Assembly: GCA_964396685.1 (NCBI GenBank)
Contig: CAYNFS010000004.1
Coordinates: 1 to 63,639 of the forward strand
Direction of reading: 5' to 3'
From: an uncultured Candidatus Saccharibacteria bacterium
Lineage (GTDB): Bacteria > Patescibacteriota > Doudnabacteria > UBA920 > 2-01-FULL-46-14
DNA length: 63,639 bases
The notes beneath the pieces are model-generated. The model worked only from the letters and a program-made list of their open reading frames with translations. It did not search any database and was not told the origin of the DNA. A program made the position numbers and the translations under genes. Position 1 is the first letter of the stretch; every line of letters starts with the position of its first letter. Below are positions 13,783 through 62,327 of this stretch, piece after piece.

Positions 13783-13797
13783 GACAAATACGAAAAT

Positions 13798-14187
13798 ATG
13801 AAATTTTTTAGAAATATTTTTATACTAATCATTATACTAATATTGTCGTACTTCTTCTCCTCCTATTTCGGTGTATTATTTGATAAATTCTATAAAATCA
13901 CAGAGGAGGGCTTTTTCTCAGTTCCTAGAGAAACAAGCATGTTGCTTATAGGATTCATTTTATCGTATATATTTTTTTCCATTCTGCTTTTCACACTTTT
14001 CGGCGGAGCAAAAAAATACTGGTGGATAGGAATTCTTTTGATCCCAGCCGCGGCTTTTGAATTATCCCTTGACGCCAAGCATATCTATTTCCCCCTCGTC
14101 CTCGCTCTCCTCGGCTGGCTGATTGGCCTCGCCATTCTAAAAATCTACCAGTTTGCCAAAAAGCGTTCATTCGTCCGAAGCCCCTGA
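13798..14187 (+). CDS. small integral membrane protein (~4 TM)
   Basis: 129 aa hydrophobic ORF 15 bp after the lipase-like gene. Confidence 0.7.
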   Translation: MKFFRNIFILIIILILSYFFSSYFGVLFDKFYKITEEGFFSVPRETSMLLIGFILSYIFFSILLFTLFGGAKKYWWIGILLIPAAAFELSLDAKHIYFPLVLALLGWLIGLAILKIYQFAKKRSFVRSP

Positions 14188-14283
14188 CTCTCCTAGCCAA
14201 AGCATTGGAGAATCCTCAATATCTTGATTCCCGTGGGGAGCCGCGGAATATCAACGCGGAGGAGAAGAAACCCAAACAAAATA
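14156..14283. repeat. 128-bp direct repeat, copy 1 (upstream of R-M cassette 1)
   Basis: matches 16323-16450 with 4 substitutions. Confidence 0.95.
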
Positions 14284-14363
14284 ATCTTTGCTCCCATTCA
14301 TGGAAGTGCTAGAATTAAGGTACACTGAGGAATATAGTTCCCCCAAGCTTACTAAAAATATAC

Positions 14364-15104: not shown

Positions 15105-15107
15105 TAT

Positions 15108-16091: not shown

Positions 16092-16169
16092 AAACAACTT
16101 ACGACCAAAAAAATCATTATAGTCTCGCATGATCTTCCAGCACACGGCATAATAGACTATGGTTAACTA

Positions 16170-16367
16170 ATGACAATTTACCTCATTACCCACACGGAAA
16201 CCTATTACAATCGCAATCCTCGCTCTTCTCGGCTGGCTGATTGGCTGGGGGATTTTAAAGATCTACCACCCCGCCAAAAAATGAACCACCTCACAGTGAG
16301 CCGACGAAGCATCGGAGGCTTTCCAAAAAGCGTTCATTCGTCCGAAGCCCCCGACTCTCCTAGCTAA
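16170..16367 (+). pseudogene. chimeric remnant: 5' end of a histidine phosphatase gene fused to the 3' end of a membrane-protein paralog
   Basis: 16170-16214 encodes MTIYLITHTETYYNR as at 18676; from 16218 onward resembles 14100 onward. Confidence 0.85.
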
Positions 16368-16450
16368 AGCATTGGAGAATCCTCAATATCTTGATTCCCG
16401 TGGGGAGCCGCGGAATATCAATGCGGAGGAGAAGAAACCCAAACGAAATA
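16323..16450. repeat. 128-bp direct repeat, copy 2 (upstream of R-M cassette 2)
   Basis: matches 14156-14283. Confidence 0.95.
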
Positions 16451-16520
16451 GTTTGGCGGGGCGGCAATGTGGATAATCAAGATTGACAATGGGTGAACAA
16501 GCGTTTACCATAAAAGTAAT

Positions 16521-17708
16521 ATGCGAGACATGCAACTCTTGGGAATAAAAGAAAAAAAACAACAATTTGGCCAGTTTTTCACCACTAATTCTGATTATAT
16601 CCTTCAAGGCTTGGAGAAGTATGTAAGGAATAAAGATATTACTGATCCATTCGTCGGTGGGGGCGACCTTTTGGATTGGGCAAAAAGAAATGGGGCCGCG
16701 ACAATAAAGGGATATGATATTGACAGTAAATGCGTAGACAATAAAACAATTTTTTGGAACGACAGTTTGCTAAATCCAAAAAGTTATGATTTTGTTTTAA
16801 CCAACCCTCCTTATCTGAATGTTAACAAGGGTAAGGATGAAATTAAGAAAAAATATTTTCGAAAAACTGGTTTAGAAGATTTATACCAAATTTCTCTGCG
16901 GGCGATAAAAGGTAGCGAAGAAGGAATAGCAATAGTTCCGATCAATTTCCTATCGGCGCAAAATTCCGAAAAGATCAGGAGAGAATTTTTCGCAAAATTT
17001 GAGATAATCGAGATGAATTATTTCAAACAGCGGGTATTTTCCGATACGACCTACAACGTAATTGCGTTTTATTACCGAAAAAGAAAAGATCTCTTAAAAC
17101 CAGAATCTGTTTTTGTTATCAAAACCAATATTTTCCCAGACAATAAAAAAATTGATATTGAGCTTTCACAGCGTTTAGGCTGGCTTATTGGTGGGGACTT
17201 TGTATCTAAAATAGACGAACAAGACAACAGATTAAAAATCCGCAGGCTTACAGAGGAGGATATGATTGAAAACCGCGGAAATATAGAGATAGAGGCTGCC
17301 TACAATCATACTGATACAAAGAGAAGTTGGAAAATCTCAGAAGAATTTTGTGAAAAGATTAACTCTAACATTATTTTGCTCAAAGCCATAGACAGCGGTT
17401 CTGAAAGCGGAAAAATAGCACTAGAGGACATTCGTGATTATGGTGTCGGATGCCTGGTGAGTAAATCTACTTCCAGACATATGATCTATTTGATTTTTGA
17501 AAATAATATATCGGTATTTGCGCAAAAGAAGTTAATCAGACTTTTTAATGAACGAATGGAATATTTGCGTCATAAATATATGTCCTTATTTCTGACGAAT
17601 TACCGAGATAAAGACAGAAAAAGGATTTCTTTCGATTTTGCGTATAAGTTGCTTAATCACCTTTATTTTACTGAAATATCTAAAAATAAAAGCAATACTC
17701 TTTTTTGA
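16521..17708 (+). CDS. gamma-class N6-adenine DNA methyltransferase
   Basis: GQFFT, DPFVGGG (motif I), NPPY (motif IV). Confidence 0.88.
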   Translation: MRDMQLLGIKEKKQQFGQFFTTNSDYILQGLEKYVRNKDITDPFVGGGDLLDWAKRNGAATIKGYDIDSKCVDNKTIFWNDSLLNPKSYDFVLTNPPYLNVNKGKDEIKKKYFRKTGLEDLYQISLRAIKGSEEGIAIVPINFLSAQNSEKIRREFFAKFEIIEMNYFKQRVFSDTTYNVIAFYYRKRKDLLKPESVFVIKTNIFPDNKKIDIELSQRLGWLIGGDFVSKIDEQDNRLKIRRLTEEDMIENRGNIEIEAAYNHTDTKRSWKISEEFCEKINSNIILLKAIDSGSESGKIALEDIRDYGVGCLVSKSTSRHMIYLIFENNISVFAQKKLIRLFNERMEYLRHKYMSLFLTNYRDKDRKRISFDFAYKLLNHLYFTEISKNKSNTLF

Positions 17709-17713
17709 GATAA

Positions 17714-18649
17714 ATGACAAATTTAGAGTTGCTGGAATTTTGCAAAAAACACCCGGAGCCGGTTCTAGACAGGCACTATATGTTTATCGAGAAAGATAAG
17801 AACCTTAGCAAATATGTAAGTCAGACTAAGGAAATAAAAAATACCTTAATTTCCATAAAGAAAATCACTGGTAAGAGAAATGCGGGCAGAGTTTTAAATG
17901 ACCTATATGGCGATTTAGCCAGCTTACTGAACAAATATTCGATTTTTTCGGAGTTTGGCTGTTTCGTTAACGCCGCTGATTCCAGCTTAAAATATGTAAG
18001 AAGTGATCTCGAACTTTTGAAAGAAGTAACTCTTTTATATTTGTCAAAAAGAGAACTGAACGAAATCGTACCCGCAGAGTGGGTACAGGCACTGATTGAC
18101 AAAAATTCCTCTAGAAAGAAAGGTCAAGCAGGGGAAGAAAAGCTCCTTAGGGCTCTGAGCTCGTTGAAATACAAGTATACGGAAAATTATAACGAATTTA
18201 TGAGAAATAGGAGAAGTGTTTCCCGATTCAAAAGAGATTTTACTTTGAAAAAGATCGAGCAGAATTTAAAAATCTCAATCGGTAAACAAACACAAGAGAA
18301 GAAGCTTGATCTCTGTATAAAAAAAGATAAAAATATTTATTTCCTGGAAGCCAAGCATATCAGTAATAGCGGCGGCGCTCAAAACAAGCAGATGCTTGAA
18401 CTAATCGAAATTATAAGAGAGAATCCCAAATACAAGCGCTATCATTTTGTTTCTTTTTTGGACGGCGTCTATTTTAATATCCTTTGGAAACCAGAGAAAG
18501 CGAAACTGCTAGAAAAGGCTGATGAGAGATCCGTAAAGAAAACATTAAATAAAATTGAGAGCCAAACAAGGGATATTGTCCAAGCATTGAAAAATAATCC
18601 AGGCAATTATTTTATAAACACAGCCGGTTTTTCCAAGCTGTTTTCATGA
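17714..18649 (+). CDS. type II restriction endonuclease-like protein (PD-(D/E)xK)
   Basis: KKLD...LEAK...GG.QNKQ; follows a methyltransferase. Confidence 0.7.
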   Translation: MTNLELLEFCKKHPEPVLDRHYMFIEKDKNLSKYVSQTKEIKNTLISIKKITGKRNAGRVLNDLYGDLASLLNKYSIFSEFGCFVNAADSSLKYVRSDLELLKEVTLLYLSKRELNEIVPAEWVQALIDKNSSRKKGQAGEEKLLRALSSLKYKYTENYNEFMRNRRSVSRFKRDFTLKKIEQNLKISIGKQTQEKKLDLCIKKDKNIYFLEAKHISNSGGAQNKQMLELIEIIRENPKYKRYHFVSFLDGVYFNILWKPEKAKLLEKADERSVKKTLNKIESQTRDIVQALKNNPGNYFINTAGFSKLFS

Positions 18650-18675
18650 TATCTGATGAAGACAAAAATCAGGTA

Positions 18676-19230
18676 ATGACCATCTACTTAATCACCCATA
18701 CAGAAACCTATTACAATCGCCGGCGGATTTTTTGCGGGCAACGCGACTCCCGCCTCACCCCTCTAGGACATCGGCAGGCCGAAGCCATCGGCCGCAAGCT
18801 TAAAAATGAAAAAATTGATGCGGTTTTCACTTCTCCTCTTGGCCGCTGTCTTGAGACTCTAAAACATATCAAAAAGTACCATCCAGACATCAAAGTCATC
18901 AAAGACCCGAGGCTTATTGAACGCGATTATGGCAGACTCACCGGCAAAAGTAAGGTTAAATACCGCCAGCAACATCCCAAGCTTTACCAAATTTACCACC
19001 GCTCTTATGAAACTGCTCCGCCCGGCGGGGAAAGCATGATAAAAGTCTCAAAGCGGGTTTTGAGTTTTCTCAAAGACGCCCTGCGTTACCTCAAAAAAAA
19101 GAAGGCCGATGCGCTTATCATCGGCCACAACAATTCTGTCCGCCCCATCCGCCGCTACTTTGAGAAACTCTCCGTAAAACAGATGATGCAGGATGACAAC
19201 CATTTGCGGATTTTCATCTACCGCATCTAG
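18676..19230 (+). CDS. histidine phosphatase family protein
   Basis: THTET variant of RHG motif, D..LT..G..QA, SPL.R..ET, ER.YG, H.N. Confidence 0.85.
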   Translation: MTIYLITHTETYYNRRRIFCGQRDSRLTPLGHRQAEAIGRKLKNEKIDAVFTSPLGRCLETLKHIKKYHPDIKVIKDPRLIERDYGRLTGKSKVKYRQQHPKLYQIYHRSYETAPPGGESMIKVSKRVLSFLKDALRYLKKKKADALIIGHNNSVRPIRRYFEKLSVKQMMQDDNHLRIFIYRI

Positions 19231-31553: not shown

Positions 31554-34196
31554 ATGGCGAACGCACAAACCTCCTGGTTCCGGGAGATCCTTTCGGTGAT
31601 CCTGGGCCATCCCATTGGCCAGTTTTTGAGCAATGCGCTCAAGGATCTATTTCAAAAAGCCGGGGAACATGTGACCGAGAAGGAGATCAAGGTCATCATG
31701 ACCAAGATCTTCGGGCCGGGTACGGAGGATGAACGCCGGTTCACCCTGGCTATGAGTTTTCTTGATCCCAACGAACAAAAACGGATCTGGGAGATGCTCG
31801 GCCAGCTTGAATCGCACCAAAGTGATTACTTCCGGATCACTGTAATGCAAGAAAAACCGGAAGACATCGCCAAAGTACTGCGTGAAGTTTACGCAGTCAT
31901 GGACGATAAGGCCTGGCAAAACGCGATCCAAGTCATGAATTACGACTTGGAGCACATTCAGGACAAATGGACGAGAGTTCAGAACTGGATCGGCGCCAAC
32001 TGGCGCACTCACGTTTGGCCAGCCCTTCGCGCCTTTGGCTGGTGGCGGGCAATCGGCCTTGTCGCTCTGGTGTGGTTTCTTGACCGTACGACCCCATCGC
32101 AAATCGGCCAAGCGATTGCCACAACAGCCAAAGCGATCTGGACCCAAGTCACGGCTAGTGGTGGTGGCCTCGGCAAAGGACTGGGTTGGCTCGGAACTAA
32201 ATTCGGCGCAGGACTCAAAGCCACATTCTCCGGTCTCGGAAAGGGAATTTCGGCAACCGCCAAGGGAACAGCAGAAGCAAGCGGCTGGCTCGCTAGCATA
32301 GTGGCGTGGCTTGTCAGAAACATCCTGGCTGTGACACTGGGCCTTCTGGGTCTTGTCGCCGCTCTCGGTGTGCTTTTTCTGGCATCCCCCACATTCCGCC
32401 AGCAGGTATTCACGCTTGGCCCGTCGGTACTGGTGTGTGGTGTTATACTCACGGCAATAACCATTGCTTGGGTGACCCATCATCATTACCATGCGGGCTG
32501 GGTTGTCACCCTGCTCGGCATGTACTGGCTGATCCTACTCGGCACCCTGTGGCCCGGGTTCTTAGCGAATCTGGCCACGATCGGCTTACCCCTCTTCGCG
32601 CTCCTGGCGGCTGTTCTCCTAATCCTTTCCGGATGGATGACGACAGTTCGCTGGTGGCGCCGCATTGCCTACGCTTTGACGACTATCTTGCTCGGCGTCT
32701 TGCTCCTCCCGCCTGTTTACCGGTGGGTGGCGGGGACGAGCTTCGGGCAAATCAGCGGCCGGTATTTCAACGCCGTTGGCGGCCAGAAGTTCACCCAGTG
32801 GGTACGCGCCATCGTCCCTCGGGAGATTGATCGCGGTCTTACATTGGGTGAAGTCACCGAGGACGCCAGCCTGTACGTGCAGGAGGCCGGCAAGCTCAAG
32901 CCCAAGGTGCTTGTCGAAACTCTCGAGGTCAAAACGAAAGAGCCGATTATAATCCTTTGGGGAGTAAAGATCGGCGAAATTGAGAAGGTTGAAGAGAAGA
33001 CCATAGAGAAACGGCAGGTACTCAAGGCCGGGACGAAGGTCAAGGTCTGGCAGGCACGGCCGAACCTGGTGTTTGACGACGGCGAGAACGACGAGCCGGT
33101 CCTGAAGGTGAAAATCGCTGACGAAAGCGGCGAATTCATCACCAGCAAGGAAGAGCTCTATGTTGTCGCCCGCAAGGTTCGCCTCACAAGCCCGCTTCCT
33201 GCCAAGGCCGACATGCGGCCCACCCCGTGGTACCACCACCTCATCTATCTCTTGGCCATGATCGTCGGAATGTGGATGATCATGAACTTGCCGCCAAAGG
33301 AGAAGCTGGGACGGAGGATCACTTGGGTGGCAATGACGGTCGTCATGCTGCCAATGGCGGTCTATATGTTAATCAACATGATAGACGCCAAGGCAGCACC
33401 AATTCCAACCCGCACGACTACGGTCACCACGACCCGCATCGGCCAGCCAGTAAGCGGCGTCATCGGGCCGCCGGAGTATGTGGCTCTGGTGGACAAGTAT
33501 CTCGCCCAGTACCCGACCGTGCCGCGGAATCTGGCGCTGGCGATGATTCAGGTTGAATCTAGCTGGGATCCGCGCGCGGTCTCGCCGCGAGGGGCGCAGG
33601 GCCTCATGCAGTTGATGCCGGATACGGCTAGGCTGCTTGGGGTCAGCGACCCCTTCGACCCAGACCAGAACATCCGCGGAGGGATCCAGTACCTCGCGCA
33701 GCAGCTTGCTGATTTCTCCTCTACGGAGCTGGCGCTGGTAGCCTATCACTGGGGACCAGAGAACGTCCGGAAACACCCGGGCAAGACCTGGGAGCAAATT
33801 CTGGCAAGCTCGGACGAACCCAGACCTGGACCACTCACGATCGACTACGTCCGGGATGTAATTGCGTTGGCTCGCGGTCAAGCTCCCGGCCAACCCGGTG
33901 TGCAGATGGCCGTAACCCCCCCACCTCCTCCGCCACCCAAGGAGTTTGAGATATCCTTCGGGCTTGCGGAAGGTACCACCTACGAGACTGTGGTCGTAAC
34001 CTGCACCACGGACTCAAAGGTGGAAACGGCCGAAATGACAAAAAAACGGCCGTACTGGGGATTCAAAATCACCCCGGCCACGCGCTGTGTGGCGCAGGAT
34101 GAAGCCGGAAGGGAAATCAAGTTGGTTGACTCAAAAGGTCAATTACTTCCAACCGGATTTCAACCCAAACCCAACCTCGTGGCCTGGGTGCAATAA
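31554..34196 (+). CDS. polytopic membrane protein with C-terminal lytic transglycosylase (SLT) domain
   Basis: start MANAQ after AAGGAG; many TM helices; 'MIQVESS...AVSPRGAQGLMQLMP.TA...DP..NI.GG..YL...LALVAYHWG'. Confidence 0.85.
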   Translation: MANAQTSWFREILSVILGHPIGQFLSNALKDLFQKAGEHVTEKEIKVIMTKIFGPGTEDERRFTLAMSFLDPNEQKRIWEMLGQLESHQSDYFRITVMQEKPEDIAKVLREVYAVMDDKAWQNAIQVMNYDLEHIQDKWTRVQNWIGANWRTHVWPALRAFGWWRAIGLVALVWFLDRTTPSQIGQAIATTAKAIWTQVTASGGGLGKGLGWLGTKFGAGLKATFSGLGKGISATAKGTAEASGWLASIVAWLVRNILAVTLGLLGLVAALGVLFLASPTFRQQVFTLGPSVLVCGVILTAITIAWVTHHHYHAGWVVTLLGMYWLILLGTLWPGFLANLATIGLPLFALLAAVLLILSGWMTTVRWWRRIAYALTTILLGVLLLPPVYRWVAGTSFGQISGRYFNAVGGQKFTQWVRAIVPREIDRGLTLGEVTEDASLYVQEAGKLKPKVLVETLEVKTKEPIIILWGVKIGEIEKVEEKTIEKRQVLKAGTKVKVWQARPNLVFDDGENDEPVLKVKIADESGEFITSKEELYVVARKVRLTSPLPAKADMRPTPWYHHLIYLLAMIVGMWMIMNLPPKEKLGRRITWVAMTVVMLPMAVYMLINMIDAKAAPIPTRTTTVTTTRIGQPVSGVIGPPEYVALVDKYLAQYPTVPRNLALAMIQVESSWDPRAVSPRGAQGLMQLMPDTARLLGVSDPFDPDQNIRGGIQYLAQQLADFSSTELALVAYHWGPENVRKHPGKTWEQILASSDEPRPGPLTIDYVRDVIALARGQAPGQPGVQMAVTPPPPPPPKEFEISFGLAEGTTYETVVVTCTTDSKVETAEMTKKRPYWGFKITPATRCVAQDEAGREIKLVDSKGQLLPTGFQPKPNLVAWVQ

Positions 34197-35270: not shown

Positions 35271-35702
35271 TCAGAAAGGCGATCCAAAAATTAAGATATT
35301 GGTGATAATCCTGATCATGGTAAAAGCCAGCACGACGACGATCAAACCGACGATGGCATTTGTGAGGGTCTTCTTGGCGGCCTCGGTTGCTTCCTCGTTG
35401 CCGCGGGCGGTGAGATACCGCAGTCCTCCCCACATCAGGAAAAGCACGGCCAGGGACCCCACTACCATAAGCGCAACATCCAAAATTATGACAATCGTAT
35501 CGCCAAAAGTTCCCCTGCTCGCAATGCCCTCATCTGCAGTATCAAACAGACAAGGAACCTTTACCAGTCCTTGCCCGCCAATTCTGCAAAAATTCTGCCC
35601 AAACGCAGCAACTGGCGCAAAAACCAAAAACAAACACAAAATGCTTAATCCCAGACTTTTTAATTTTTCGCTTTTCGCTTTTCGCTTTTCGCTTTGCGTC
35701 AT
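35271..35702 (-). CDS. TrbC/VirB2-like pilin 6
   Basis: GGLRYLTARGNEEATEAAKKTLTNAIVG. Confidence 0.85.
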   Translation of the reverse strand: MTQSEKRKAKSEKLKSLGLSILCLFLVFAPVAAFGQNFCRIGGQGLVKVPCLFDTADEGIASRGTFGDTIVIILDVALMVVGSLAVLFLMWGGLRYLTARGNEEATEAAKKTLTNAIVGLIVVVLAFTMIRIITNILIFGSPF

Positions 35703-36106
35703 ATCCCCGTTCCCGGCACTCCCTTAAGAAGCACCGCCGCAATAATGGTCACAATCGCATAAGCCATTACGATAATCACCAGCCCCCAGATGGAGCTGGT
35801 GATGGTTTTTTTGGCGGCTTCGGTCGCTTCTTCATTGCCTCTTGCGATTACATATTTGTAGCCGCCCCACATCAGGAAAATCACGGCAACGCTCGCGGCC
35901 ACAATCAGCAAGATCTGAATAATGACGGTAATGAGCTTCCCCAGATCTGTTGCTTGGGTAGGCGAATTAGGATCGCCACCAAAAATTCCCTTAAGATCTT
36001 GAAAAAGCTTGCTGTCAATCCCCGCCCCATAAGTTAATATGGGAACGAGCAGGAAAACTAGCCCGCCCAAAACCAAAAAAAACCAAAATTTTCCTTTTTG
36101 TCTCAT
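35699..36106 (-). CDS. TrbC/VirB2-like pilin 5
   Basis: GGYKYVIARGNEEATEAAKKTITSSIWG. Confidence 0.85.
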   Translation of the reverse strand: MRQKGKFWFFLVLGGLVFLLVPILTYGAGIDSKLFQDLKGIFGGDPNSPTQATDLGKLITVIIQILLIVAASVAVIFLMWGGYKYVIARGNEEATEAAKKTITSSIWGLVIIVMAYAIVTIIAAVLLKGVPGTGI

Positions 36107-36127
36107 TATTAGCCTGACTGCTCTGTC

Positions 36128-36502
36128 TTAAACGTTCTGGGAGATCAAAGCGTTGGCAATGACCCGGACTATGACAAAGGCCAAGATGATGATGACGATA
36201 CCGATAATCGCGTTGGTAATAGTCTTTTTGGCCGATTCTGCAGTTTCTTCATTGCCTCCGGCCGTAATATAGCGAAACCCGCCGACAATAAGGAATATAA
36301 CAGCAACAAGGCCGGCAATAGCCAGCAGAATTTCAACAATGCGGATAATGATTTCGGTCGCGGTATTTACACTTCCTACCGGATCCGAAGGATCGCTCGG
36401 GTTGCGAAACTGCGCTCCCGCCACAAGCGGCAGTACCAGCACCGCAAGAAGCAAAAAGATCGATACAATATTGGCTGTTTTAATGGGATTTATGTTTCTC
36501 AT
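36128..36502 (-). CDS. TrbC/VirB2-like pilin 4
   Basis: GGFRYITAGGNEETAESAKKTITNAIIG. Confidence 0.88.
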   Translation of the reverse strand: MRNINPIKTANIVSIFLLLAVLVLPLVAGAQFRNPSDPSDPVGSVNTATEIIIRIVEILLAIAGLVAVIFLIVGGFRYITAGGNEETAESAKKTITNAIIGIVIIILAFVIVRVIANALISQNV

Positions 36503-36685
36503 TTGTAATTATGCGATCCGAATGATACTAATTTTCATCCGAATGTTCCGAATATATTAGGATAATTCAGATGTCATTCGTATATTAGAATCGCTGTTTT
36601 TTAAGGAATAACTCTCGACCTCGAGTTATTTTTAATTATCAACAATACTTGCATATTATAGCATATTCCAAAAAATAATGCCAGC

Positions 36686-37306
36686 TTACGGCCCCGTGCG
36701 GACACAATCACCCACGGTAAGCCCGCCAGGGTTCTGACAAGCGCAGCCCCCCGTCCGAGTCCGCCTGCATAAAAGCCCGGTATTGCATTCCGAATCGCCG
36801 GTACAAGTGGAGCCTGCGACTCCGCCGCCACCACCTCCTCCCGAAGGATTGCTCGAACCCCCACTCCCTCCTCCTGTGGCGGGGGCGGGGGCAGTTGTCA
36901 AAATGGTATTCACAATCGCCACGATGGCAAAAGCCAAAACAATCACCACAATGCCGACTACCGCGTAAGTGATGGTTTTTTTGGCCTTTTCCGTGGCCTC
37001 TTCATTGCCTCTTGAGGCCACATACTGAAAGCCTCCGACAATCAAAAAGAGCACCGCAATCCCGCCGGCGGCGTATAAAAGCCACGTAATGAAATGCCTA
37101 AGAAGCGCTCCAAAATCCGTGAAGTTAACCAATTGGCCGGGGGCGGGGTTTCCTAATACACATTTGTTTGGCGAAATCTCACATTGACCAGCAGGGCAGC
37201 TCCCTTGGATGCACGGCCTTTCCTCTTGAGCATTTACTAGCAAAGGAGGACTAAACAAGATCAAGAAACCTAAAACCAAAAGTATTTTATAATTTTGTTT
37301 CTTCAT
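36686..37306 (-). CDS. TrbC/VirB2-like pilin 3 with Cys-rich N- and C-terminal extensions
   Basis: start MKKQNY; GGFQYVASRGNEEATEKAKKTITYAVVG; Gly/Ser linker, then a 6-Cys domain. Confidence 0.85.
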   Translation of the reverse strand: MKKQNYKILLVLGFLILFSPPLLVNAQEERPCIQGSCPAGQCEISPNKCVLGNPAPGQLVNFTDFGALLRHFITWLLYAAGGIAVLFLIVGGFQYVASRGNEEATEKAKKTITYAVVGIVVIVLAFAIVAIVNTILTTAPAPATGGGSGGSSNPSGGGGGGGVAGSTCTGDSECNTGLLCRRTRTGGCACQNPGGLTVGDCVRTGP

Positions 37307-37308
37307 TT

Positions 37309-37902
37309 TTAGGACGGCGGAGGAGAAAGTAAGATAGTGCGAATCAAATTGATTATAGTAAAAGCCAGAATTGTTACAATGAATCCGGCAATCGCCCATT
37401 TCAGCCCCTTTTTGGCGCTTTCCACCGCTTCTTCATTCCCGGCTGATGTAATGTACTTATAACCATAATATATTATCATCAAAATTGCGGCAAATCCCAA
37501 TATCCCCAGAAAATTCCGCATGACAAAATACATCACACTTACAAAACTGCCGGGTTCAGTCGGGCCGGTAATCGGATTTTGAATTTTATCAGCGCCCGGA
37601 GGGCTGGGGGTGAAGCCCAAAAACTTGGCTGTGGCCGCAATTAAAGTAAAAGACAAAAGCGAAACTATAAATCCGCCCACGGCCCAAGTCAGACTCTTCC
37701 TGGCGCTTTCTATGGCCTCTTCATTCGTGGCCAAAATCATTTTGACTCCCGAAAAAACCGTAAATGCAATGGCGATAGCCGCAATGATCGCCGCAAATCC
37801 CTGAAAAGCTCTGACCACGAGCTCCCCCGGCGTGCTCACCCCCAGCCAAGCTAAGGGATTAAATAATTCCACTGTTTGCGCTAAAAAAATAAATTTAATC
37901 AT
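37309..37902 (-). CDS. double-domain TrbC/VirB2-like pilin 2
   Basis: two motifs: ATNEEAIESARKSLTWAVGG and TSAGNEEAVESAKKGLKWAIAG. Confidence 0.85.
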   Translation of the reverse strand: MIKFIFLAQTVELFNPLAWLGVSTPGELVVRAFQGFAAIIAAIAIAFTVFSGVKMILATNEEAIESARKSLTWAVGGFIVSLLSFTLIAATAKFLGFTPSPPGADKIQNPITGPTEPGSFVSVMYFVMRNFLGILGFAAILMIIYYGYKYITSAGNEEAVESAKKGLKWAIAGFIVTILAFTIINLIRTILLSPPPS

Positions 37903-38351
37903 TGATTTATCGGATTTGAAGGATTAAAGGGGCAATCGGTTGCGCCCGGATTGTAAATGCATTGAATATCGTACCACTTACGTTCCATTTTCTCGCCTTT
38001 GCCAAAAATACCGTTGACCAGCAAATTTACGAAAACAAAAGCCAGAACGATTATGCCGAAGCCGACAATGGCGTTGGAGAGGCCCTTCCTGGCTTTTTCG
38101 ATTTTTTCGGCATTGCCGACTGAAGTAATCAGGTTAAAACCGGCCAGCAGAATGTAGTACATCGCCACAATCGCCGCGACCGTGATAAGATAATTGATGA
38201 CGCGGGTGATAAGAATAATCAAGTGCTTGAGTTGGCACGGTTCAGGGTATTCGGAAGAGCCGCACGGGACTAGGCTGAAAGCGTGGACTGAGAGAGGAGC
38301 AAATGTAACCGCCAAAGTTATGAGCGATAATATTATAATTTTTTTCTGCAC
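37899..38351 (-). CDS. TrbC/VirB2-like pilin 1
   Basis: LVPCG...PC...; AGFNLITSVGNAEKIEKARKGLSNAIVG. Confidence 0.85.
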   Translation of the reverse strand: MQKKIIILSLITLAVTFAPLSVHAFSLVPCGSSEYPEPCQLKHLIILITRVINYLITVAAIVAMYYILLAGFNLITSVGNAEKIEKARKGLSNAIVGFGIIVLAFVFVNLLVNGIFGKGEKMERKWYDIQCIYNPGATDCPFNPSNPINQ

Positions 38352-42225: not shown

Positions 42226-42639
42226 TTATTTTGCATTTTGATTTTTGAATTTTGCATTTAGCGCCAGCGCTGCTATTCCTGCCATTATCCCGATATCCGC
42301 CAAATTTACCGTGCTAATCCCGATATCAATGAAGTCTACCACCTTGCCGTCCCAAAGTCTATCAAAAATGTTTGCCGCAGCGCCCCCGATAATTAGGCCC
42401 AAAGCGGCTGGGGAATAATCCAGAGAAAAATACTTAAAATAAAAAAATAAAAACGCGACAGACAAAACTACTGCCACGGCCGAATTAAAAAATCCCGGCA
42501 GGTTGATTCCAAACGGGAGACCGGGATTTTGAACGATGGAATTTGTAAAAAAATCAATGCGGAGCGCCAGAAGCTTTGTCAGGAGGTCGGCTAAAAAAAT
42601 AAAAATTACTACCAGCCAAAACTTATTTACTTTCGTCAT
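42226..42639 (-). CDS. lspA: lipoprotein signal peptidase
   Basis: D..TK, N.G..FG, GGAAANIFDR...V.DF, N.AD. Confidence 0.88.
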   Translation of the reverse strand: MTKVNKFWLVVIFIFLADLLTKLLALRIDFFTNSIVQNPGLPFGINLPGFFNSAVAVVLSVAFLFFYFKYFSLDYSPAALGLIIGGAAANIFDRLWDGKVVDFIDIGISTVNLADIGIMAGIAALALNAKFKNQNAK

Positions 42640-42982
42640 GCTCTACGCAGTTTTCGGCTTCGGGGGCTACCTCCAAACGTTTAAGCGGCATTTCCTCGCC
42701 GCCTTTTGCGCAAATCCCGTAAGTTCCCTTTTCAATCCGTTTAAGCGCCTTTTCAACTTTTGTCAGTTTTTGTTCCAAATCCCATTCTTCGGCAAGGTTT
42801 GCTTCATACGCGGTAACCTCGGCCGCGTTCTCGTCTTCCTTGCTGCCAAATTCCGGATACTCCGCGCGAAAATCCCCCGCTACCTTGTCGCGTTTAGCGA
42901 TGCGCGAAAGCAAACCCAAGAGTCGGGCTTTTTCAGCAAGCAGACGCTTCTTATTTTTCTCAATCAGTTTCTGGTCTATCAT
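42623..42982 (-). CDS. TraR/DksA family protein
   Basis: coiled coil + 'AL.RIE.GTYGIC..GGE......RL...PEA..C..H'. Confidence 0.85.
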   Translation of the reverse strand: MIDQKLIEKNKKRLLAEKARLLGLLSRIAKRDKVAGDFRAEYPEFGSKEDENAAEVTAYEANLAEEWDLEQKLTKVEKALKRIEKGTYGICAKGGEEMPLKRLEVAPEAENCVEHDESK

Positions 42983-43050
42983 GCCATCATTGTACCAAAA
43001 AAATGAGCAAACTAAAAGGACCGCGTATGATAGCCTCTAAAAAATTATTG

Positions 43051-43465
43051 AGTAGGCCGAACGCGGCCCCTGCCCTTTGACAGGGTGCCTGGCCGTCCGT
43101 ATCTGAATCCTATAAACTAGGACCCAAATATGGACGGTCCGACACACTACGTCGTCAAAGAACGATTCTTGTATTATCCAACCAATTTACAAGGTACAAC
43201 TCCTGTACTGCCCTTACGGTCGGCTCTAAGGCTGACCTCAAACATTTTGGTTTATTTTGGTTTTTGTAGAAAAAAACCTAACTGCTTCCGGCTAATTTTG
43301 GCCGGAGGCGACTCATTTTTGTTTTTGTTTTTCGAAAAGGCGGGTTGGATCGCCTACGACGGACAGTAAGTCAGGAGGGAGGACCTCCTAAACCCGCTCC
43401 CCTGACTTATTTAAGGAGTCGCATGACGCAAATAAAAATCCGCTAATTTAAGCCGCGGATTATTT
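43051..43465 (+). ncRNA. candidate structured non-coding RNA of unknown class
   Basis: about ten hairpins, one long-range helix and a possible pseudoknot in an intergenic gap; G-U pairs favour the + strand. Confidence 0.4.
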
Positions 43466-43524
43466 GAAAAGAGCATACAATAAAAGTTCAACTAAAACCA
43501 ATATAGCAAAAAAAATAGAGGCTG

Positions 43525-45906
43525 TCAATCAAGCTCGCCTGTGGATAACACAAAATCAGGAACCTCTTGCAGGTATTTTATAAAAACTTGGTCATACTCG
43601 GTCAAGACGCGGGGATCCAAAATATAAATACTCTTGGACTCAACGCTTCCGGCTAAAAATCTGGCAAGCAAAGTATGGAAGATATGCACGGTACGGGGTA
43701 GGACGTAGTCAATAAATGAGGTCTTAACCCCCGGGGCCTCAAAAGGCAAACGCCAAATGACAAGGTTTCGGGCTTCAGGATAATGTTTGAAATGCCGCAA
43801 CGTCTCGTTTGTCGAAAGCAAAAGCGTGAAATCGCTGTCGACATTCTTTAACCTGCGGCTAGTGATAATTCTGTTGTTTGGCGAAGGATTCCTCCGCAAG
43901 ATGTCAGAAACCTCTGAAAGCTTTGCTTTCGATGGTAAAATCACGATTGTGCTGCCTGGCAGTGTAGACAAAAGCTTTTGAAATCCCTCTGTGGTAAAAT
44001 TTTTACTGAAAATTTTCACGGCAATTTTTTGGAACGGAACTCCAACGTTGACCTGCTCAAATCGAAAACTGGAAATTCCCAAAATCTTGTCAAAGTAACT
44101 TATTGAGGACTGAGGCAGTTGGGTATCAATGATTGTCGTGCTCGCAAATTTCTTTATAAACTCCTGCCAAACTTTTTCCAGCTTTTTTGGCATGGCGTTC
44201 AACGCCACAAACTTGGAACCAAACCGCAGCCAGTAATATTTATCGGGCTGGCCTTCCAAAAAAATCTCGTAAATTAAATTTTTGAGCGAAACAATCTTGT
44301 GGCGCAGGGCCCCTTCTTCCAGTGCTGACTCTGCGTTCAAAAAATCTTCCTGCCCTAGCAGATATTCCGCGAATGTCTCAAGCTTGCTTATTAATTTTTG
44401 CGCCGGATGAAATAATTTCTGGAAACGCTCCTGTTCTTTTTCTGTATCATCAACTACCAAACTTTCGGCAAATTCTCCTTGGCTTTTCAAATACACAAGA
44501 TGCAAAATTCCAAAAAACAAGTCAAGCTCATTGGCAACTCTTTCCGCTTCCTGCGGAAAACGCGCGTAAACGATTTCTATGGCGTTTCTGATTTTTCGCA
44601 AATCCCAACTTTCAGTCAAAGTCTCTGCCAGGCCGTCCTCAATTTTGGCGAGATCAAAAAGCAGTACCGGAAATTCAGAAAAACCAACTTGCCAATCGGA
44701 AACAAGCGTAAACAAAGATGACAATGTTAAAAAATAGGTCTGTTTTTTGTTAAATTCCAAAGACTGGAAATAAATGCAATGGTGACGGGAACAAATTTGA
44801 GGATCGACTCGTAGTAAATGCAAAAAAGCCCTTTCTTCATAAGCCCATTTGATTTGCGATAAATCCGTTGATCCTGGCTCAAATTCCCGAAGAATCGCCA
44901 GTTTTATAAGGATTTTCCAAATCTCATCCTGCTGTTTCTCTGCTCCTTTGATCCTCTCATAACGGACTGCGCAGAGGGCGTTCTTTGGATCAACAACTTG
45001 CTGATTTTGGGGAACAAGATCAAGGTCAGTCGGATGAGATACTCCCACAATTTTCGGACCGTTCTGCAAGGCCAAAAACGCCAGCAACTCCTGGTGTTTG
45101 CTGAAAGACAAAGGCAAGGTCATTATCGTTTTGTCCGGCCAAATGTTTGATAAAGAGTTGAACAACTCCTCCCCTCTTTCCGCCAGAGGCGGATCCGCCT
45201 TCGGCGGAAAGGTAAGAGAGGGTGGGGGTGAGTAATGAACATCCCCTCTCTTTCTCCCCCGGACTCCGGAGGAGATTGAAGCGGGGGCGGACAAATCCAA
45301 AATCAAATCCCTAAACTTCAAATTTGATTTCACAAGATACTCTCTAATCTCCTTCTGCAATTCTAAATCGAAACTCAAAAACTCATTTAGAATCCCGGCC
45401 AGCACTAAACCGGAATTTTTGGCATCAGTCAACGCGCGGTGCGATAGGCCTTCTTCTATCCCGAATTCTTCCGCCAAATACTCCAATGAATGAGCCGGCA
45501 GAAGAGGCAAAAAAGTCAGAGCCAGCTCCAGGGTGTCGACGTGTTGATTTTTTAAAACTAGCCCTTGATTTTTAAGATATTCGAGATCAAACAAAATATT
45601 TTGACCGAGTATGCTCTCGTTTCCGAAAAACTTCTGCAAATCTGTTTTGACATCTTTCCAAACAGGCGCAGTCTTTAATTCCTCCAGAGCAATCCCCGTC
45701 AGACTTAAAGCCGAAGCTGACGGCTCAATTTCGGGATTGACAAGCGAACTGAAAGACTTGCCAAAATGGACTTTGATCTTTTTTTCTTTCTGATCAAAAC
45801 TTAATTCAGCTTCAACTGCCCCCGCTTCCATAATCCGCCCCTCTTTCATATCAAGATGCGTGGTTTCAAGATCAAGGGCGATGAATTTTTTGGAATAACT
45901 CGACAT
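43525..45906 (-). CDS. DEDDh 3'-5' exonuclease fused to a degenerate DinG-like domain
   Basis: LDLETT, GQNILFDL, HRALTDA; C-terminal 'RLPF...LD.R'; no intact Walker A seen. Confidence 0.8.
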   Translation of the reverse strand: MSSYSKKFIALDLETTHLDMKEGRIMEAGAVEAELSFDQKEKKIKVHFGKSFSSLVNPEIEPSASALSLTGIALEELKTAPVWKDVKTDLQKFFGNESILGQNILFDLEYLKNQGLVLKNQHVDTLELALTFLPLLPAHSLEYLAEEFGIEEGLSHRALTDAKNSGLVLAGILNEFLSFDLELQKEIREYLVKSNLKFRDLILDLSAPASISSGVRGRKRGDVHYSPPPSLTFPPKADPPLAERGEELFNSLSNIWPDKTIMTLPLSFSKHQELLAFLALQNGPKIVGVSHPTDLDLVPQNQQVVDPKNALCAVRYERIKGAEKQQDEIWKILIKLAILREFEPGSTDLSQIKWAYEERAFLHLLRVDPQICSRHHCIYFQSLEFNKKQTYFLTLSSLFTLVSDWQVGFSEFPVLLFDLAKIEDGLAETLTESWDLRKIRNAIEIVYARFPQEAERVANELDLFFGILHLVYLKSQGEFAESLVVDDTEKEQERFQKLFHPAQKLISKLETFAEYLLGQEDFLNAESALEEGALRHKIVSLKNLIYEIFLEGQPDKYYWLRFGSKFVALNAMPKKLEKVWQEFIKKFASTTIIDTQLPQSSISYFDKILGISSFRFEQVNVGVPFQKIAVKIFSKNFTTEGFQKLLSTLPGSTIVILPSKAKLSEVSDILRRNPSPNNRIITSRRLKNVDSDFTLLLSTNETLRHFKHYPEARNLVIWRLPFEAPGVKTSFIDYVLPRTVHIFHTLLARFLAGSVESKSIYILDPRVLTEYDQVFIKYLQEVPDFVLSTGELD
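45165..45274. repeat. nested palindromic elements in frame in the exonuclease-DinG gene
   Basis: TCCGCCAGAGGCGGATCCGCCTTCGGCGGA (45179-45208) sits in the loop of a C/G-rich hairpin. Confidence 0.85.
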
Positions 45907-60318: not shown

Positions 60319-60405
60319 CGGTGGGGGTGGGATTTGAACCCACGGTACTCTTGCGAGCACACCTGATTTCGAGTCAGGCCGATTAAACCACTCTCGCACC
60401 CCACC
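60319..60405 (-). tRNA. tRNA-Ser(CGA)
   Basis: cloverleaf with long variable arm; anticodon arm CCTGA-CT CGA AA-TCAGG; CCA not encoded. Confidence 0.95.
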
Positions 60406-61051
60406 TCTCATTCATTATATCTTTTACTGTTTGATAAGTCATCCGGTGGATTTCGCAAGGGCCGTATCGCAATAAATTTTTTCTGTGAAAATCCGTATCA
60501 TAACCTTTGTGTTTTTCAAATCCATATGCAGGAAATTTCTGCGCATAATTTTTCATCAAATCATCGCGGTATACTTTAGCCAAAATTGAAGCTGCCGCGA
60601 TTGAAAGCACCAGAGCGTCCCCGTCAACAATTGTCACTTGCCTGATCTTAAATCTCAAATCATAAATCTTAAATCTCCCATCTATCAAAGCAACCTCTGG
60701 GATTATTTTCATATTCTCCACGGCTCGCCGCATCGCGAGCAAAGTCGCCTCGCGGATATTCAGCTCATCAATTTCTTTATGGCTAGCAAGCCCAATCCCG
60801 TAATCATCCGCATTTTGCTTTATGAAATCAATCATGGATTCCCGCTTTCGCGCGGACAAGATTTTGGAATCTCTTACCCCATACCACCACTTGGTCTTGC
60901 TCCTGTAGCGGCCAATTTTTTCTGGATTTAAAATCACCGCCGCCGAGACCACAGGACCAGCCAGGGGTGCCACTCCCACTTCGTCAATTCCGGCAATCAG
61001 GCGGTAGTTTGGCAAAAGTTTGGTTTCAAACGTGTAGGTTGGGGTGATCAT
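60383..61051 (-). CDS. rnhB: ribonuclease HII
   Basis: GIDEVG..PLAGPV, DSK, DG, SIAAASILAKV.RD, KGY, HR.TY. Confidence 0.95.
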   Translation of the reverse strand: MITPTYTFETKLLPNYRLIAGIDEVGVAPLAGPVVSAAVILNPEKIGRYRSKTKWWYGVRDSKILSARKRESMIDFIKQNADDYGIGLASHKEIDELNIREATLLAMRRAVENMKIIPEVALIDGRFKIYDLRFKIRQVTIVDGDALVLSIAAASILAKVYRDDLMKNYAQKFPAYGFEKHKGYDTDFHRKNLLRYGPCEIHRMTYQTVKDIMNERWGARVV

Positions 61052-61184
61052 GGCTACTTAATTATACGCTTTGCCACCTTTTGACGGAAACTAGAGCTCT
61101 TGACTGATTTATAGCACCATGTAGAATAATGTGTGCTTAGCAAGTTTGGTGGGAAGAAACAAACAAAGCCTAAAGGAGGGGCTT

Positions 61185-61448
61185 ATGGCAACTATGTTGA
61201 TACCTAAGCAGGGGGTCGGGGCCCTCACTCTGGAAGAAAGAATCCAGCAGTTTCGAAGAGATGTTGGACAGGGTCTGACCCCTGAACAAAAAATCCCTCA
61301 AGCAGAAGAACTGCTTCACGATCTGCGTGCCGATTACAAAGGCTTACGAACTATCTCTGCTCAAAGGAGCCGAGACCACAGGAAATACATCAAGTTCGTT
61401 CTGGCCAGGGCTCGTGAGGCCCAAAACATCCGCTCTAGCAGACGGTAA
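61185..61448 (+). CDS. hypothetical helical protein
   Basis: AAGGAGG RBS before ATG 61185. Confidence 0.55.
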   Translation: MATMLIPKQGVGALTLEERIQQFRRDVGQGLTPEQKIPQAEELLHDLRADYKGLRTISAQRSRDHRKYIKFVLARAREAQNIRSSRR

Positions 61449-61573
61449 TCACACAAAGGTCAAGTGGGAACGCATTTATACGTATAATCGTTCATTCATA
61501 TTTTCATCTCTCACTTGGCCTTTTCATTTTGCTCAAAAAATATTATATTATTGAAGCAGCAAGTATTGGCTGC

Positions 61574-61647
<74 letters not shown>

Positions 61648-61653
61648 TTTTAT

Positions 61654-61725
61654 GCCCCCGTAGTTCAATGGACAGAACAAGAGACTCCTAAGCTCTGGAT
61701 GGCCGTTCGATTCGGCCCGGGGGTA
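61654..61725 (+). tRNA. tRNA-Arg(CCT)
   Basis: acceptor GCCCCCG/CGGGGGT; loop CT CCT AA; TTCGATT T-loop. Confidence 0.9.
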
Positions 61726-61728
61726 AAA

Positions 61729-61766
61729 CGGGGATTGGCGCGCGGTAGCGCGTTTATCCTGCCCCG
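61729..61766 (+). pseudogene. internally deleted tRNA-Pro-like remnant
   Basis: CGGGG...GGCGC..GGTAGCGCG...ATCCTG-CCCCG; anticodon arm and T-loop missing. Confidence 0.55.
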
Positions 61767-61819
61767 TTAGATATTATTGCGCTGGAATGTTGCTATTATA
61801 TAGTGTCTTTCGTTTTAGT

Positions 61820-61865
61820 CGGGGTATTGTAGTATACCGGCAGTACGCGCGTTCATCCCGCACGA
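61820..61865 (+). pseudogene. internally deleted tRNA-Pro-like remnant
   Basis: shares TAGTATACCGG.AGTACGC.CG with the tRNA-Pro at 61894. Confidence 0.6.
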
Positions 61866-61893
61866 ATTTCAAAATGATTCATACCATGCTTCC

Positions 61894-61964
61894 CGGGGCA
61901 TAGTATACCGGAAGTACGCACGCTTCGGGTGCGTGAAGACTGGGTTCAATTCCCAGTGCCCCGA
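61894..61964 (+). tRNA. tRNA-Pro(CGG)
   Basis: anticodon arm CACGC-TT CGG GT-GCGTG; acceptor CGGGGCA/TGCCCCG. Confidence 0.92.
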
Positions 61965-62001
61965 TTGACAATCAAATAGAACATTGCTAAAAGAAAATAA
62001 T

Positions 62002-62078
62002 GCCGCGGTAGCTCAGTGGTTTAGAGCGCTGCCCTGAAGAGGCAGGCGTCGGGTGTTCGATTCACCCCCGCGGCACCA
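62002..62078 (+). tRNA. tRNA-Phe(GAA)
   Basis: anticodon arm CTGCC-CT GAA GA-GGCAG; CCA encoded. Confidence 0.95.
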
Positions 62079-62079
62079 T

Positions 62080-62151
62080 GCGGGTGTCGTATAACGGCTA
62101 TTATGCAACCTTGCCAAGGTTGAGAAGGGGGTTCGACTCCCCTCACCCGCT
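62080..62151 (+). tRNA. tRNA-Gly(GCC)
   Basis: anticodon arm CAACC-TT GCC AA-GGTTG; U discriminator. Confidence 0.95.
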
Positions 62152-62240
62152 TTCTTGGGAAACGGAAGACGGGTGAACAACGCCCACACAACATAGAGGG
62201 CGAGTGGCGGAACTAGGGATATTTACCCCGCATAGTTGAT

Positions 62241-62327
62241 GCCCGGGTGGCGGAATCGGTATACGCAACGGACTTAAAATCCGTGACCCGAAAGGGTTTG
62301 TGGGTTCGAGTCCCACCCCGGGCACCA
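62241..62327 (+). tRNA. tRNA-Leu(TAA)
   Basis: anticodon arm ACGGA-CT TAA AA-TCCGT; long variable arm; CCA encoded. Confidence 0.95.

Follow-up and report, generated by a model that had tools for sequence, protein, structure and literature searches.

A minus-strand structured RNA gene next to a dksA-like gene of Candidatus Doudnabacteria appears to belong to an undescribed RNA family of the Patescibacteria

The stretch of DNA analysed here (the window, 63,639 nt) belongs to a genome of Candidatus Doudnabacteria, Patescibacteria or candidate phyla radiation (CPR). A gap of 542 bp between two minus-strand genes, one dinG-like and one dksA-like, contains what is very probably a minus-strand gene for a structured RNA. 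The element appears to be a member of a previously undescribed RNA family that extends across many lineages of the Patescibacteria. It is an independently transcribed, conserved, abundant and structured RNA with its own near-consensus promoter and terminator, and homologues are expressed far above their flanking genes. It was treated as a new family because Rfam, ARAGORN and the literature gave no counterpart.

An earlier note on this DNA had described positions 43051-43465 as a densely structured region of ~410 nt and a candidate for an unannotated non-coding RNA (ncRNA). The sequence elements quoted in it were all found where it had placed them, and the region indeed folds far better than dinucleotide shuffles (z = -6.9 on the plus and -6.4 on the minus strand). 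Homologues were collected because the folding of a single sequence selects neither the strand nor the real from the incidental helices. A search with an alignment of the DksA-like protein yielded 160 loci from species-representative genomes and metagenomes. Within Doudnabacteria the gap has a nucleotide identity of 72-85 %, compared to an amino-acid identity of only 53-73 % for the flanking DksA-like protein. Of the gap sequences, 17 distinct ones were aligned, and a realignment of 16 core sequences served for the pair counts. The structure was read from the alignment and from RNAalifold and then pair-counted over the 16 Doudnabacteria sequences; it has 13 helices with a total of 87 base pairs, and two of the helices are pseudoknotted. 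Standard pairs made up 96.8 % of the modelled cells, in comparison to 87.1 % in column shuffles and ~40 % when the partners were slid by 1-3 columns. Changes on both sides were present in 37 of the 87 pairs, a number reached by none of 500 shuffles (19.9 +/- 2.3) and not approached by the slid controls (6-15). The proposal of an unannotated structured ncRNA was borne out. The best-supported helices are P4, P8, P8b, P9, P10 and P2, and P5 and P6 have two double-changed pairs each. The element proved to be larger than proposed, ~43010-43493, and is composed of the following parts:

43010-43493 (approximate), minus strand: whole predicted primary transcript, ~480 nt, bounded by a conserved promoter and a terminator
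43500-43528, minus strand: sigma-70-type promoter, -35 TTGACA (43523-43528), 17-bp spacer, extended -10 TGCTATATT (43500-43508)
43429-43461, minus strand: 5' hairpin AAUCCGC(11-nt loop)GCGGAUU followed by a U-run, terminator-like, lineage-specific, conserved loop CGCGGCUA
43367-43409, minus strand: P1, UAAGUCAGGGGAG / CUCCCUCCUGACUUA, apical insert of ~15 to ~200 nt among relatives, both strands kept
43200-43377, minus strand: long-range helix P2, UACUGUCC (43361-43368) / GGGCAGUA (43206-43213)
43372-43377 / 43200-43205, minus strand: outer extension of the same long-range helix, CUCCUG / CAGGAG
43338-43355, minus strand: P3 hairpin, AGGCG-AUCCAACC-CGCCU, loop at 43343-43350
43313-43333, minus strand: A-rich single strand GAAAAACAAAAACAAAAAUGA, core AAAACAAAAACAAAA at 43317-43331
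43284-43309, minus strand: P4 hairpin, GCCUCCGGC-CAAAAUUA-GCCGGAAGC, conserved loop CCAAAAUUAG
43243-43278, minus strand: P5 hairpin, GGUUUU (43273-43278) / AAAACC (43259-43264), then a second A-rich strand AAAAUAAACCAAAAUG (43243-43258)
43218-43237, minus strand: P6 hairpin, GGUCAG...CCGACC, pairs 168/181 and 169/180 covarying
43168-43193, minus strand: P7 hairpin, CUUGUA...UACAAG, loop GGUUGGAU at 43176-43183
43072-43163, minus strand: 3' domain with P8, GUUCUUUGAC (43154-43163) / GUCAAAGGGC (43072-43081)
43145-43156, minus strand: invariant GACGACGUAGUG in the 3' domain
43141-43148 / 43082-43089, minus strand: P8b, double changes in 4/7 pairs
43091-43139, minus strand: P9, variable apical hairpin, 5/6 pairs of its base double-changed
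43008-43070, minus strand: terminator domain of P10, P11, AU-rich loop (43039-43053) and U-tract (43008-43017)
43062-43070 / 43017-43025, minus strand: P10, GGGGCCGCG / CGCGGUCCU, double changes in 7/9 pairs
43054-43058 / 43033-43038, minus strand: P11, GGCCU / AGAGGC, covarying by eye (GAGG/CCUC, AGAG/CUCU, AGCCG/CGGCU, GGAG/CUCC)

P2 encloses P3, the A-rich strand, P4, P5 and P6. Its pair 29/191 is CG in nine and UA in seven sequences, pair 28/192 is UA in eight, UG in four and CG in three, and the homologous helix CUUCUCUAC/GUAGAGGAG covaries family-wide. The stem of P3 is invariant within Doudnabacteria; across the family, 7/7 of its pairs covary. P4, which the earlier note had seen as the helix CTTCCGGCTA/TGGCCGGAGG, covaries strongly with 5/9 pairs changed on both sides and up to five pair types per position. 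It is a Doudnabacteria-specific insertion that is missing from Falkowbacteria-like members. Compensatory changes in P5 were observed in the loci L006 (UA/UA) and L006 together with L008 (AU), the helix homologous to P6 covaries family-wide in 8/10 pairs, and P8 has double changes in 7/10 pairs. The hairpins CTTGTA/TACAAG and 43091-43139 from the first reading are P7 and P9, both maintained in homologues, and TAAGTCAG..GGGAG/CTCCC..CTGACTTA is the equally maintained P1. On the minus strand, P1 contains G.U pairs in L001 and L002, and L006 shows co-ordinated changes (CGGGAG/CUCCCG) as well as a joint loss of UAAGUC and GACUUA. The pyrimidine strand CUCCUGACUUA (43367-43381) can pair with the upstream UAAGUCAGGAG (43397-43409) in P1 or with the downstream CAGGAG (43200-43205) in outer P2. 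The two purine partners are maintained and, in L006, change jointly with the pyrimidine strand; the overlap is either a switch, i.e., an alternation of the two helices, or a pseudoknot. A candidate pseudoknot of three pairs, without double changes and not traced in other lineages, connects GUC (43358-43360, past P2) with GAC in GACGACGUAGUG, where 48/48 cells are paired (3 G.U). Three of the pairings listed in the earlier note found no support in the alignment: GTACA/TGTAC and CCTTA/TAAGG were not conserved among the 16 homologues, and the long-range helix GCGACTC/GAGTCGC is specific for the window and lies in a variable segment.

The loop of P3, AUCCAACC (43343-43350), is complementary to the loop of P7, GGUUGGAU (43176-43183), and forms a kissing-loop pseudoknot. 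The earlier note had considered a pseudoknot possible, and the RNA does contain one; the pairing then suggested, GCGGGTT/AACCCGC, is a window-specific feature of a variable segment. Within Doudnabacteria the kissing interaction has two double-changed pairs, with a double compensation in L006 (UCUAGCC/GGCUAGA) and a U.G pair in L083. The main support is the family-wide comparison of the loops, which were extracted and compared directly because they are insert columns of the family alignment, ruling out a column-wise count. About 20 differing complementary pairs were present, e.g., UCCAACC/GGUUGGA, ACUGACU/AGUCAGU, CUGACU/AGUCAG, CCUAACU/AGUUAGG, GCCGAUC/GAUCGGC, UUCUAACC/GGUUAGAA, ACCAAC/GUUGGU and UUUCUGAC/GUCAGAAA. 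The mean Watson-Crick run between P3 and P7 loops was 4.7 within the same sequence; shuffled loops gave 2.8 and combinations of unrelated members 2.9. The A-rich strand lies inside the loop that P2 closes, next to the P3 hairpin that is tied to P7. Its core AAAACAAAAACAAAA is invariant in 16/16 Doudnabacteria sequences and unpaired in every model. The 15-mer AAAAYAAAAAYAAAA occurs a single time in the 63.6-kb window (43317-43331, minus strand; 0.02 expected) and is present in 94/160 loci, all but one occurrence being on the dksA strand. The strand consists of six consecutive A-A-N triplets (16-18 nt). Two copies of the 15-mer were detected in some Moranbacteria-like members, and in some lineages the A-rich strand is present in two to about four copies with small hairpins between them; most members have one or two.

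The strand of the RNA gene was derived from several features. Over the 87 pairs, 88 cells are G.U on the minus strand and 20 are A.C cells that would be G.U on the plus strand. The count favours the minus strand in each of the 16 sequences (window: 6 versus 2), with P8 alone contributing 30 minus-strand G.U cells versus one A.C. The energy by RNAalifold was -94.5 for the minus and -68.9 for the plus strand. The conserved promoter, the terminator, the A-rich 15-mer and the match of a covariance model named R1 are on the minus strand. The RNA is thus co-directional with both neighbours, opposite to the first reading, which had held that G-U pairs favour a plus-strand transcript antisense to both genes. 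Such a plus-strand ncRNA has to be seen as very improbable. It would fold well (z = -6.9), a terminator-like hairpin is present on the plus strand at 43283-43310, and wobbles favouring that strand occur at the third pair of P6 (8/16 sequences) and in the window's own P9 and P4, which look better on the plus strand. These exceptions were probably the cause of the earlier strand assignment. Against them stands the total wobble count: the 30 G.U cells of P8 would become A.C. Furthermore, no promoter was found on the plus strand, the one on the minus strand is conserved in 86 of 88 members, and the A-rich motif, apart from the single occurrence mentioned, and all covariance-model hits are on the dksA strand. 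At the third pair of P6 (alignment columns 166/183), eight sequences have U-A and eight C.A without an intermediate; the C.A may be tolerated, or be a protonated A.C wobble, in an otherwise well-paired helix.

The family extends far beyond Doudnabacteria. Profile searches seeded with Doudnabacteria gave weak collinear matches upstream of dksA in other CPR lineages, and an iteration from locus L029 joined the groups: after seven rounds, at least 118 of the 160 loci were included, every match being on the dksA strand. Among the members are Falkowbacteria, Moranbacteria, Magasanikbacteria, Komeilibacteria, Buchananbacteria and unclassified Parcubacteria. The model R1 was built from 13 Falkowbacteria-like members only and has 154 positions with 36 pairs. 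It recovered window positions 43167-43387 on the minus strand only and over the full model length (24.2 bits, rough E ~0.005), and 37/37 of its matches with E <= 0.06 were at the expected place and strand. In the R1-based family-wide alignment, 95.7 % of the cells were paired, a figure that favours the structure because the alignment was fitted to the model; double changes occurred in 31/36 pairs (0/500 shuffles; slid controls 44-48 %). Members are 300-530 nt long and have in common the promoter TTGACN-17-TGnTAnnnT; a variable hairpin P1; a long-range P2, CUUCUCUAC.../...GGUAGAGGAG in most lineages and UACUGUCC/GGRCAGUA plus CUCCUG/CAGGAG in Doudnabacteria; the pairing between the P3 and P7 loops; an unpaired AAAACAAAAACAAAA directly past P3; and P6 before the 3' strand of P2. 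The element in the window has the promoter, P2, the P3-P7 kissing loops, the unpaired AAAAYAAAAAYAAAA past P3 and P6.

The promoter matches 11 of 12 consensus positions in a promoter scan and has the TG extension in addition; its -35 box overlaps the stop codon of the dinG-like gene. It is kept in the Doudnabacteria alignment, and among 88 family members TTGACN-17-TAnnnT was located 5' of the RNA in 86, with the TG extension in 83. From the position of the -10 box, the transcription start is expected at ~43493. The 5' hairpin, listed earlier as ATCCGC/GCGGAT, is kept in 10 of 13 Doudnabacteria relatives with 5' sequence and missing in L003, L005 and L007; it carries no covariation information because the stem is invariant. 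It could end dinG transcripts, attenuate the synthesis of the RNA itself or define a separate RNA of ~65 nt. At the 3' end, the loop of P11 starts in most Doudnabacteria with a UAUAAU-like sequence (AYAUAWU) that resembles a -10 box. A competing local hairpin CCCUG/CAGGG was rejected, being broken in L001, L004 and L086 by substitutions that P10 compensates.

Runs containing the sequence of the window are groundwater metagenomes, and the nearest loci are in Doudnabacteria metagenome-assembled genomes; RNA runs with the window's own sequence were not found, and none turned up for the closer relative L004. Expression was observed for homologues. In a sediment metatranscriptome (X6), two contigs of a related Doudnabacteria-type RNA (<90 % identical) align only to 43144-43364 and contain no flanking genes. 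The Moranbacteria UBA1362 member, L018, occurs in 20 runs listed for an RNA query. Contigs 100 % identical to L018 were present in seven true metatranscriptomes, which stem from five studies (biofilm, anaerobic digester, activated sludge). They span L018:2006 to ~2240-2304, with nothing else covered within 1-3 kb and without flanking genes; such contigs give no strand information and may owe their ends to the assembly. An eighth run (X7) is evidently DNA because it yielded a 48-kb contig. The promoter of L018 is located at 1742-1770 and a primary transcript is expected from ~1778. Since the contigs repeatedly start at 2006 instead of ~1778, the 3' ~295 nt are suggested to be the accumulating species. 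Position 2006 is three base pairs inside the base of an inserted 21-bp hairpin (1951-2008), which also contains a promoter-like TTGGGA-17-TATAAT; this start suggests processing or an internal start.

It is scarcely credible that the region lacks a functional RNA and represents an overlooked gene for a small protein, a stack of terminators or elements at the DNA level. An open reading frame (ORF) for 79 amino acids on the plus strand (43130-43369) does overlap the core, and terminator-like hairpins are present at both ends. Neither strand, frame nor length of the ORF is conserved, it has no Pfam match, and a protein-coding role was rejected. The longest ORFs of the homologues vary in strand, frame, position and length, and indels and length differences are not multiples of three. 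Compensatory changes in 37 pairs including the pseudoknot are beyond what coding or terminators alone would produce, and RNA contigs cover the element.

The earlier note had been unable to assign the region to a known class, and this held in a systematic comparison. Rfam 15 was applied with gathering thresholds to the whole window and permissively, to E = 10, to the region, to ten Doudnabacteria and 20 other loci and to L029 and L018. Known families gave no match at the thresholds, and to E = 10 only chance-level microRNA and small RNA models, falling well short of their thresholds, appeared in the window and 30 loci from three subfamilies. Neither riboswitch or T-box models nor those for OLE, ROOL, GOLLD, raiA and HEARO matched the window or the 30 homologous loci. 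Transfer-messenger RNA (tmRNA), standard or permuted, was rejected on the negative ARAGORN results for the window and 16 homologous loci, the silence of Rfam to E <= 10 and the lack of a tRNA-like domain by eye. RNase P RNA had no Rfam hit to E <= 10, and the motifs CR-I (GGAAAGUCC), CR-V (ACAGAA..GGCUUA) and P4 of that RNA were not seen on reading the sequences. A resemblance of ACUGUCCGUCGCAGG...AACCCGCC to the 3' region of M1 RNA was dropped for the wrong order, the missing CR-I partner and the lack of model support. For the signal recognition particle (SRP) RNA, there was no Rfam hit and the GNRA-tetraloop motif of helix 8 (GGAAGCAGC core) was not seen by eye. 6S RNA was rejected as well, the fold being multi-branched with a kissing-loop pseudoknot and not a rod of ~180-200 nt with a central bubble, and Rfam gave no 6S signal. 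In the open-access literature, the text searched, no description was found of a lineage-specific ncRNA of CPR, of the motif sequence or of large ncRNAs in CPR.

A divergent or analogous form of a universal housekeeping RNA, chiefly a 6S-like regulator of RNA polymerase and less likely RNase P RNA, tmRNA or SRP RNA, is quite unlikely for these reasons. Such an RNA would be expected to be single-copy, strongly transcribed, abundant and conserved over a phylum-scale group, as is the case here; the synteny with a dksA-like gene and the AU-rich, -10-like loop of P11 also speak for it. However, the Rfam models for 6S, RNase P, tmRNA and SRP were silent at E <= 10 in three divergent members, ARAGORN was negative including the permuted tmRNA, and the covarying multi-branched fold with kissing loops is unlike the 6S rod. 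By eye, neither P4, CR-I and CR-V nor a tRNA-like domain or the SRP helix-8 motif could be recognised.

The genomic neighbourhood bears on the mode of action. The adjoining genes and the start signal of the downstream gene are:

43525-45906, minus strand: dinG-like gene, 793-aa protein with an RNase T/DnaQ-like exonuclease domain, upstream neighbour
42623-42982, minus strand: dksA-like gene, 119-aa DksA/TraR-type zinc-finger protein, downstream neighbour, followed by lspA
42989-42997, minus strand: extended -10 of the dksA-like gene, TGGTACAAT, a separate element 6 nt before the ATG (42982)

All Doudnabacteria-like loci have the order of a ~800-aa dinG-like gene, a gap of 500-720 bp and dksA. 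A second copy of the RNA region is absent from the window, so a repeat or mobile element was rejected. The dksA-like gene has no Shine-Dalgarno sequence. In the Doudnabacteria alignment, TTTGnTAnAAT is kept just 5' of the dksA start codon; because this extended -10 ends 6-10 nt from the ATG, the sequence implies a leaderless dksA-like mRNA. Across lineages, the distance from the RNA to dksA varies from 31 to about 2600 bp. The gene directly 3' of the RNA is dksA-like, yraN-like, codes for a 666-aa membrane protein or, past a gap of ~800 bp, is YjbQ-like. The genes downstream of the RNA have no common theme, metabolic or otherwise. In Moranbacteria-like genomes (L034, L012, L018, L067, L074 and others; ~2440-2940), a YraN/UPF0102-like gene (~130-150 aa, motif GRxLGEIDIIA) is located between the RNA and dksA. 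Upstream of the RNA, the same genomes code for a protein of ~390 aa whose N-terminus carries the conserved motif (I/V)(R/H)TMxxD(L/I), e.g., IRTMQQDL.

A leader or attenuator acting in cis would sense a metabolite, a protein, a tRNA or temperature, and an alternation of P10/P11 with a local hairpin would control the read-through into dksA-like-lspA or yraN-dksA. The hairpin in question, GGCCG/CGGCC at 43055-43068, had been pointed out before; although conserved, it is no more than an alternative to P10/P11, which has better support and excludes it. It is maintained in all Doudnabacteria relatives (equivalents in L001-L094) with differing sequences by subclade: GGGC/GCCC (with a CCC bulge between P10 and P11), GGCUGU/ACAGCC and GAGCC/GGCUC. 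Its role may be that of an antiterminator, or it may form transiently during folding. This competition, the equally exclusive pairing of P1 and outer P2 and the invariable position of the RNA 5' of the dksA-like gene on the same strand agree with a leader. Yet a conserved extended -10 of its own precedes the dksA-like gene, apparently for a leaderless mRNA, and read-through transcripts would find no Shine-Dalgarno sequence. The immediate downstream gene differs among lineages, with dksA up to 2 kb or more away, the downstream genes lack a metabolic theme and no riboswitch or T-box model matched. A size of 300-530 nt and an abundance above that of the downstream genes suit a stable RNA better. 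A role in cis is regarded as unlikely.

With moderate confidence, the element is read as a trans-acting structured ncRNA of a new family. The role in trans is suggested because the RNA has its own terminator and dksA its own promoter, and because the downstream gene varies and presents no theme. The RNA would act either as the RNA part of a ribonucleoprotein or by sequestration. A rigid pseudoknotted core would display the A-rich strand as a putative binding site for a partner, either a protein with affinity for A-rich single-stranded RNA or, possibly, a U-rich RNA. A sequestering or binding role was proposed because the layout of the A-rich strand matches RNAs with a single-strand-specific partner. 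As a tentative best guess, the RNA may be a scaffold that presents the A-rich strand to such a protein or U-rich RNA.

Several known RNAs share features with the new family. CsrB/RsmZ RNAs carry GGA motifs and CrcZ of Pseudomonas carries A-rich motifs that are bound by Hfq; a short single-stranded motif is likewise shown between hairpins in the new RNA, in one to about four copies depending on the lineage. In contrast to sponge RNAs, most members have only one or two motif copies, and the conserved pseudoknotted fold is lacking in simple sponges. The distal face of the Hfq hexamer follows an (A-R-N)n rule, into which the run of A-A-N triplets (16-18 nt) would fit. A literature search for a link of Hfq to CPR found nothing. 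OLE, ROOL, GOLLD and the raiA motif RNA are alike in a length of several hundred nucleotides, many covarying helices, long-range and loop-loop contacts, lineage restriction, high expression and the lack of an obvious coding or cis-regulatory role. Differences are the occurrence in Patescibacteria, the invariant A-rich single strand and the missing Rfam match. Kissing loops are reported to mediate the formation of homo-oligomers in ROOL, GOLLD and OLE (PMC12286853); in the new RNA, the kissing may be intra- or intermolecular. 6S RNA is likewise an abundant, strongly transcribed, stand-alone RNA, and the new RNA adjoins a gene for a factor of the RNA-polymerase-binding DksA family, but it is two to three times larger and without a rod and central bubble. 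RNase P RNA and tmRNA are similar in size (300-500 nt), pseudoknots, variable peripheral hairpins, housekeeping-type promoters and phylum-wide single copy; also, a part of the L018 primary transcript is seemingly processed away. The defining sequence and structure motifs of both are absent from the new RNA, and searches with Infernal and ARAGORN were negative.

The following observations weigh against a minus-strand RNA acting in trans in the modelled fold. The RNA is always located upstream of and co-directional with the dksA-like gene (0.03-2.6 kb), which fits a role in cis too; this co-occurrence is partly built in because the loci were gathered via the dksA-like gene. In Doudnabacteria, a terminator-like hairpin lies between the promoter and P1, ~30 nt past the predicted start of the RNA. 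By capturing the 5' strands of P10 and P11, the local hairpin at 43055-43068 would resemble an attenuator. C.A cells are present where a plus-strand U.G would fit, in the third pair of P6 (8/16), in P7 of L083 and L090 and in the window's P9. The accumulating species of L018, the 3' 295 nt, is without P3 and the 5' strand of P2, so the modelled fold may not be that of the mature RNA.

Three other features of the window were recorded aside from the RNA. Five tandem genes for small membrane proteins (35699-38351, minus strand) share the C-terminal motif G-G-F/Y-x-Y-(4-5 residues)-G-N-E/A-E-x(5)-A-K/R-K; by their sequences, they resemble the paralogous pilin- or VirB2-type proteins that are common in CPR genomes. 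A tRNA cluster at 60319-62327 comprises seven genes (Ser, Ala, Arg, Pro, Phe, Gly, Leu), and six of these are on the plus strand and fit into 750 bp. The composition deviates at 12001-19000 and 32001-34000, with a stretch of 34-43 % GC and one of 58-60 % GC in comparison to ~46 % elsewhere; these may be acquired DNA.

A large part of bacterial diversity belongs to the Patescibacteria, whose tiny genomes have lost most non-essential genes. A length of 300-500 nt, a near-consensus promoter, dozens of compensatory changes, an invariant strand of 15 nt and an abundance such that many metatranscriptomes contain no other assembled part of the locus suggest an important function of the RNA in these genome-reduced hosts. 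Large complex RNAs of a new class are seldom found in bacteria, and OLE, ROOL and GOLLD earlier revealed unexpected biology and architectures. A widespread and expressed family makes the element considerably more interesting than a lone structured intergenic region. With an alignment, a structure model and a diagnostic motif at hand, genome-wide annotation, structure determination and partner pull-downs become feasible. It is possible, if doubtful, that the family represents a housekeeping-grade RNA of CPR, an abundant ribonucleoprotein or self-assembling RNA in the rank of 6S, tmRNA or OLE with a function specific to ultra-small episymbionts. If this were true, the RNA might globally control translation, RNA decay or RNA polymerase via its invariant A-rich strand; alternatively, the kissing loops and the palindromic AU-rich loop could drive the assembly of a higher-order RNA particle.

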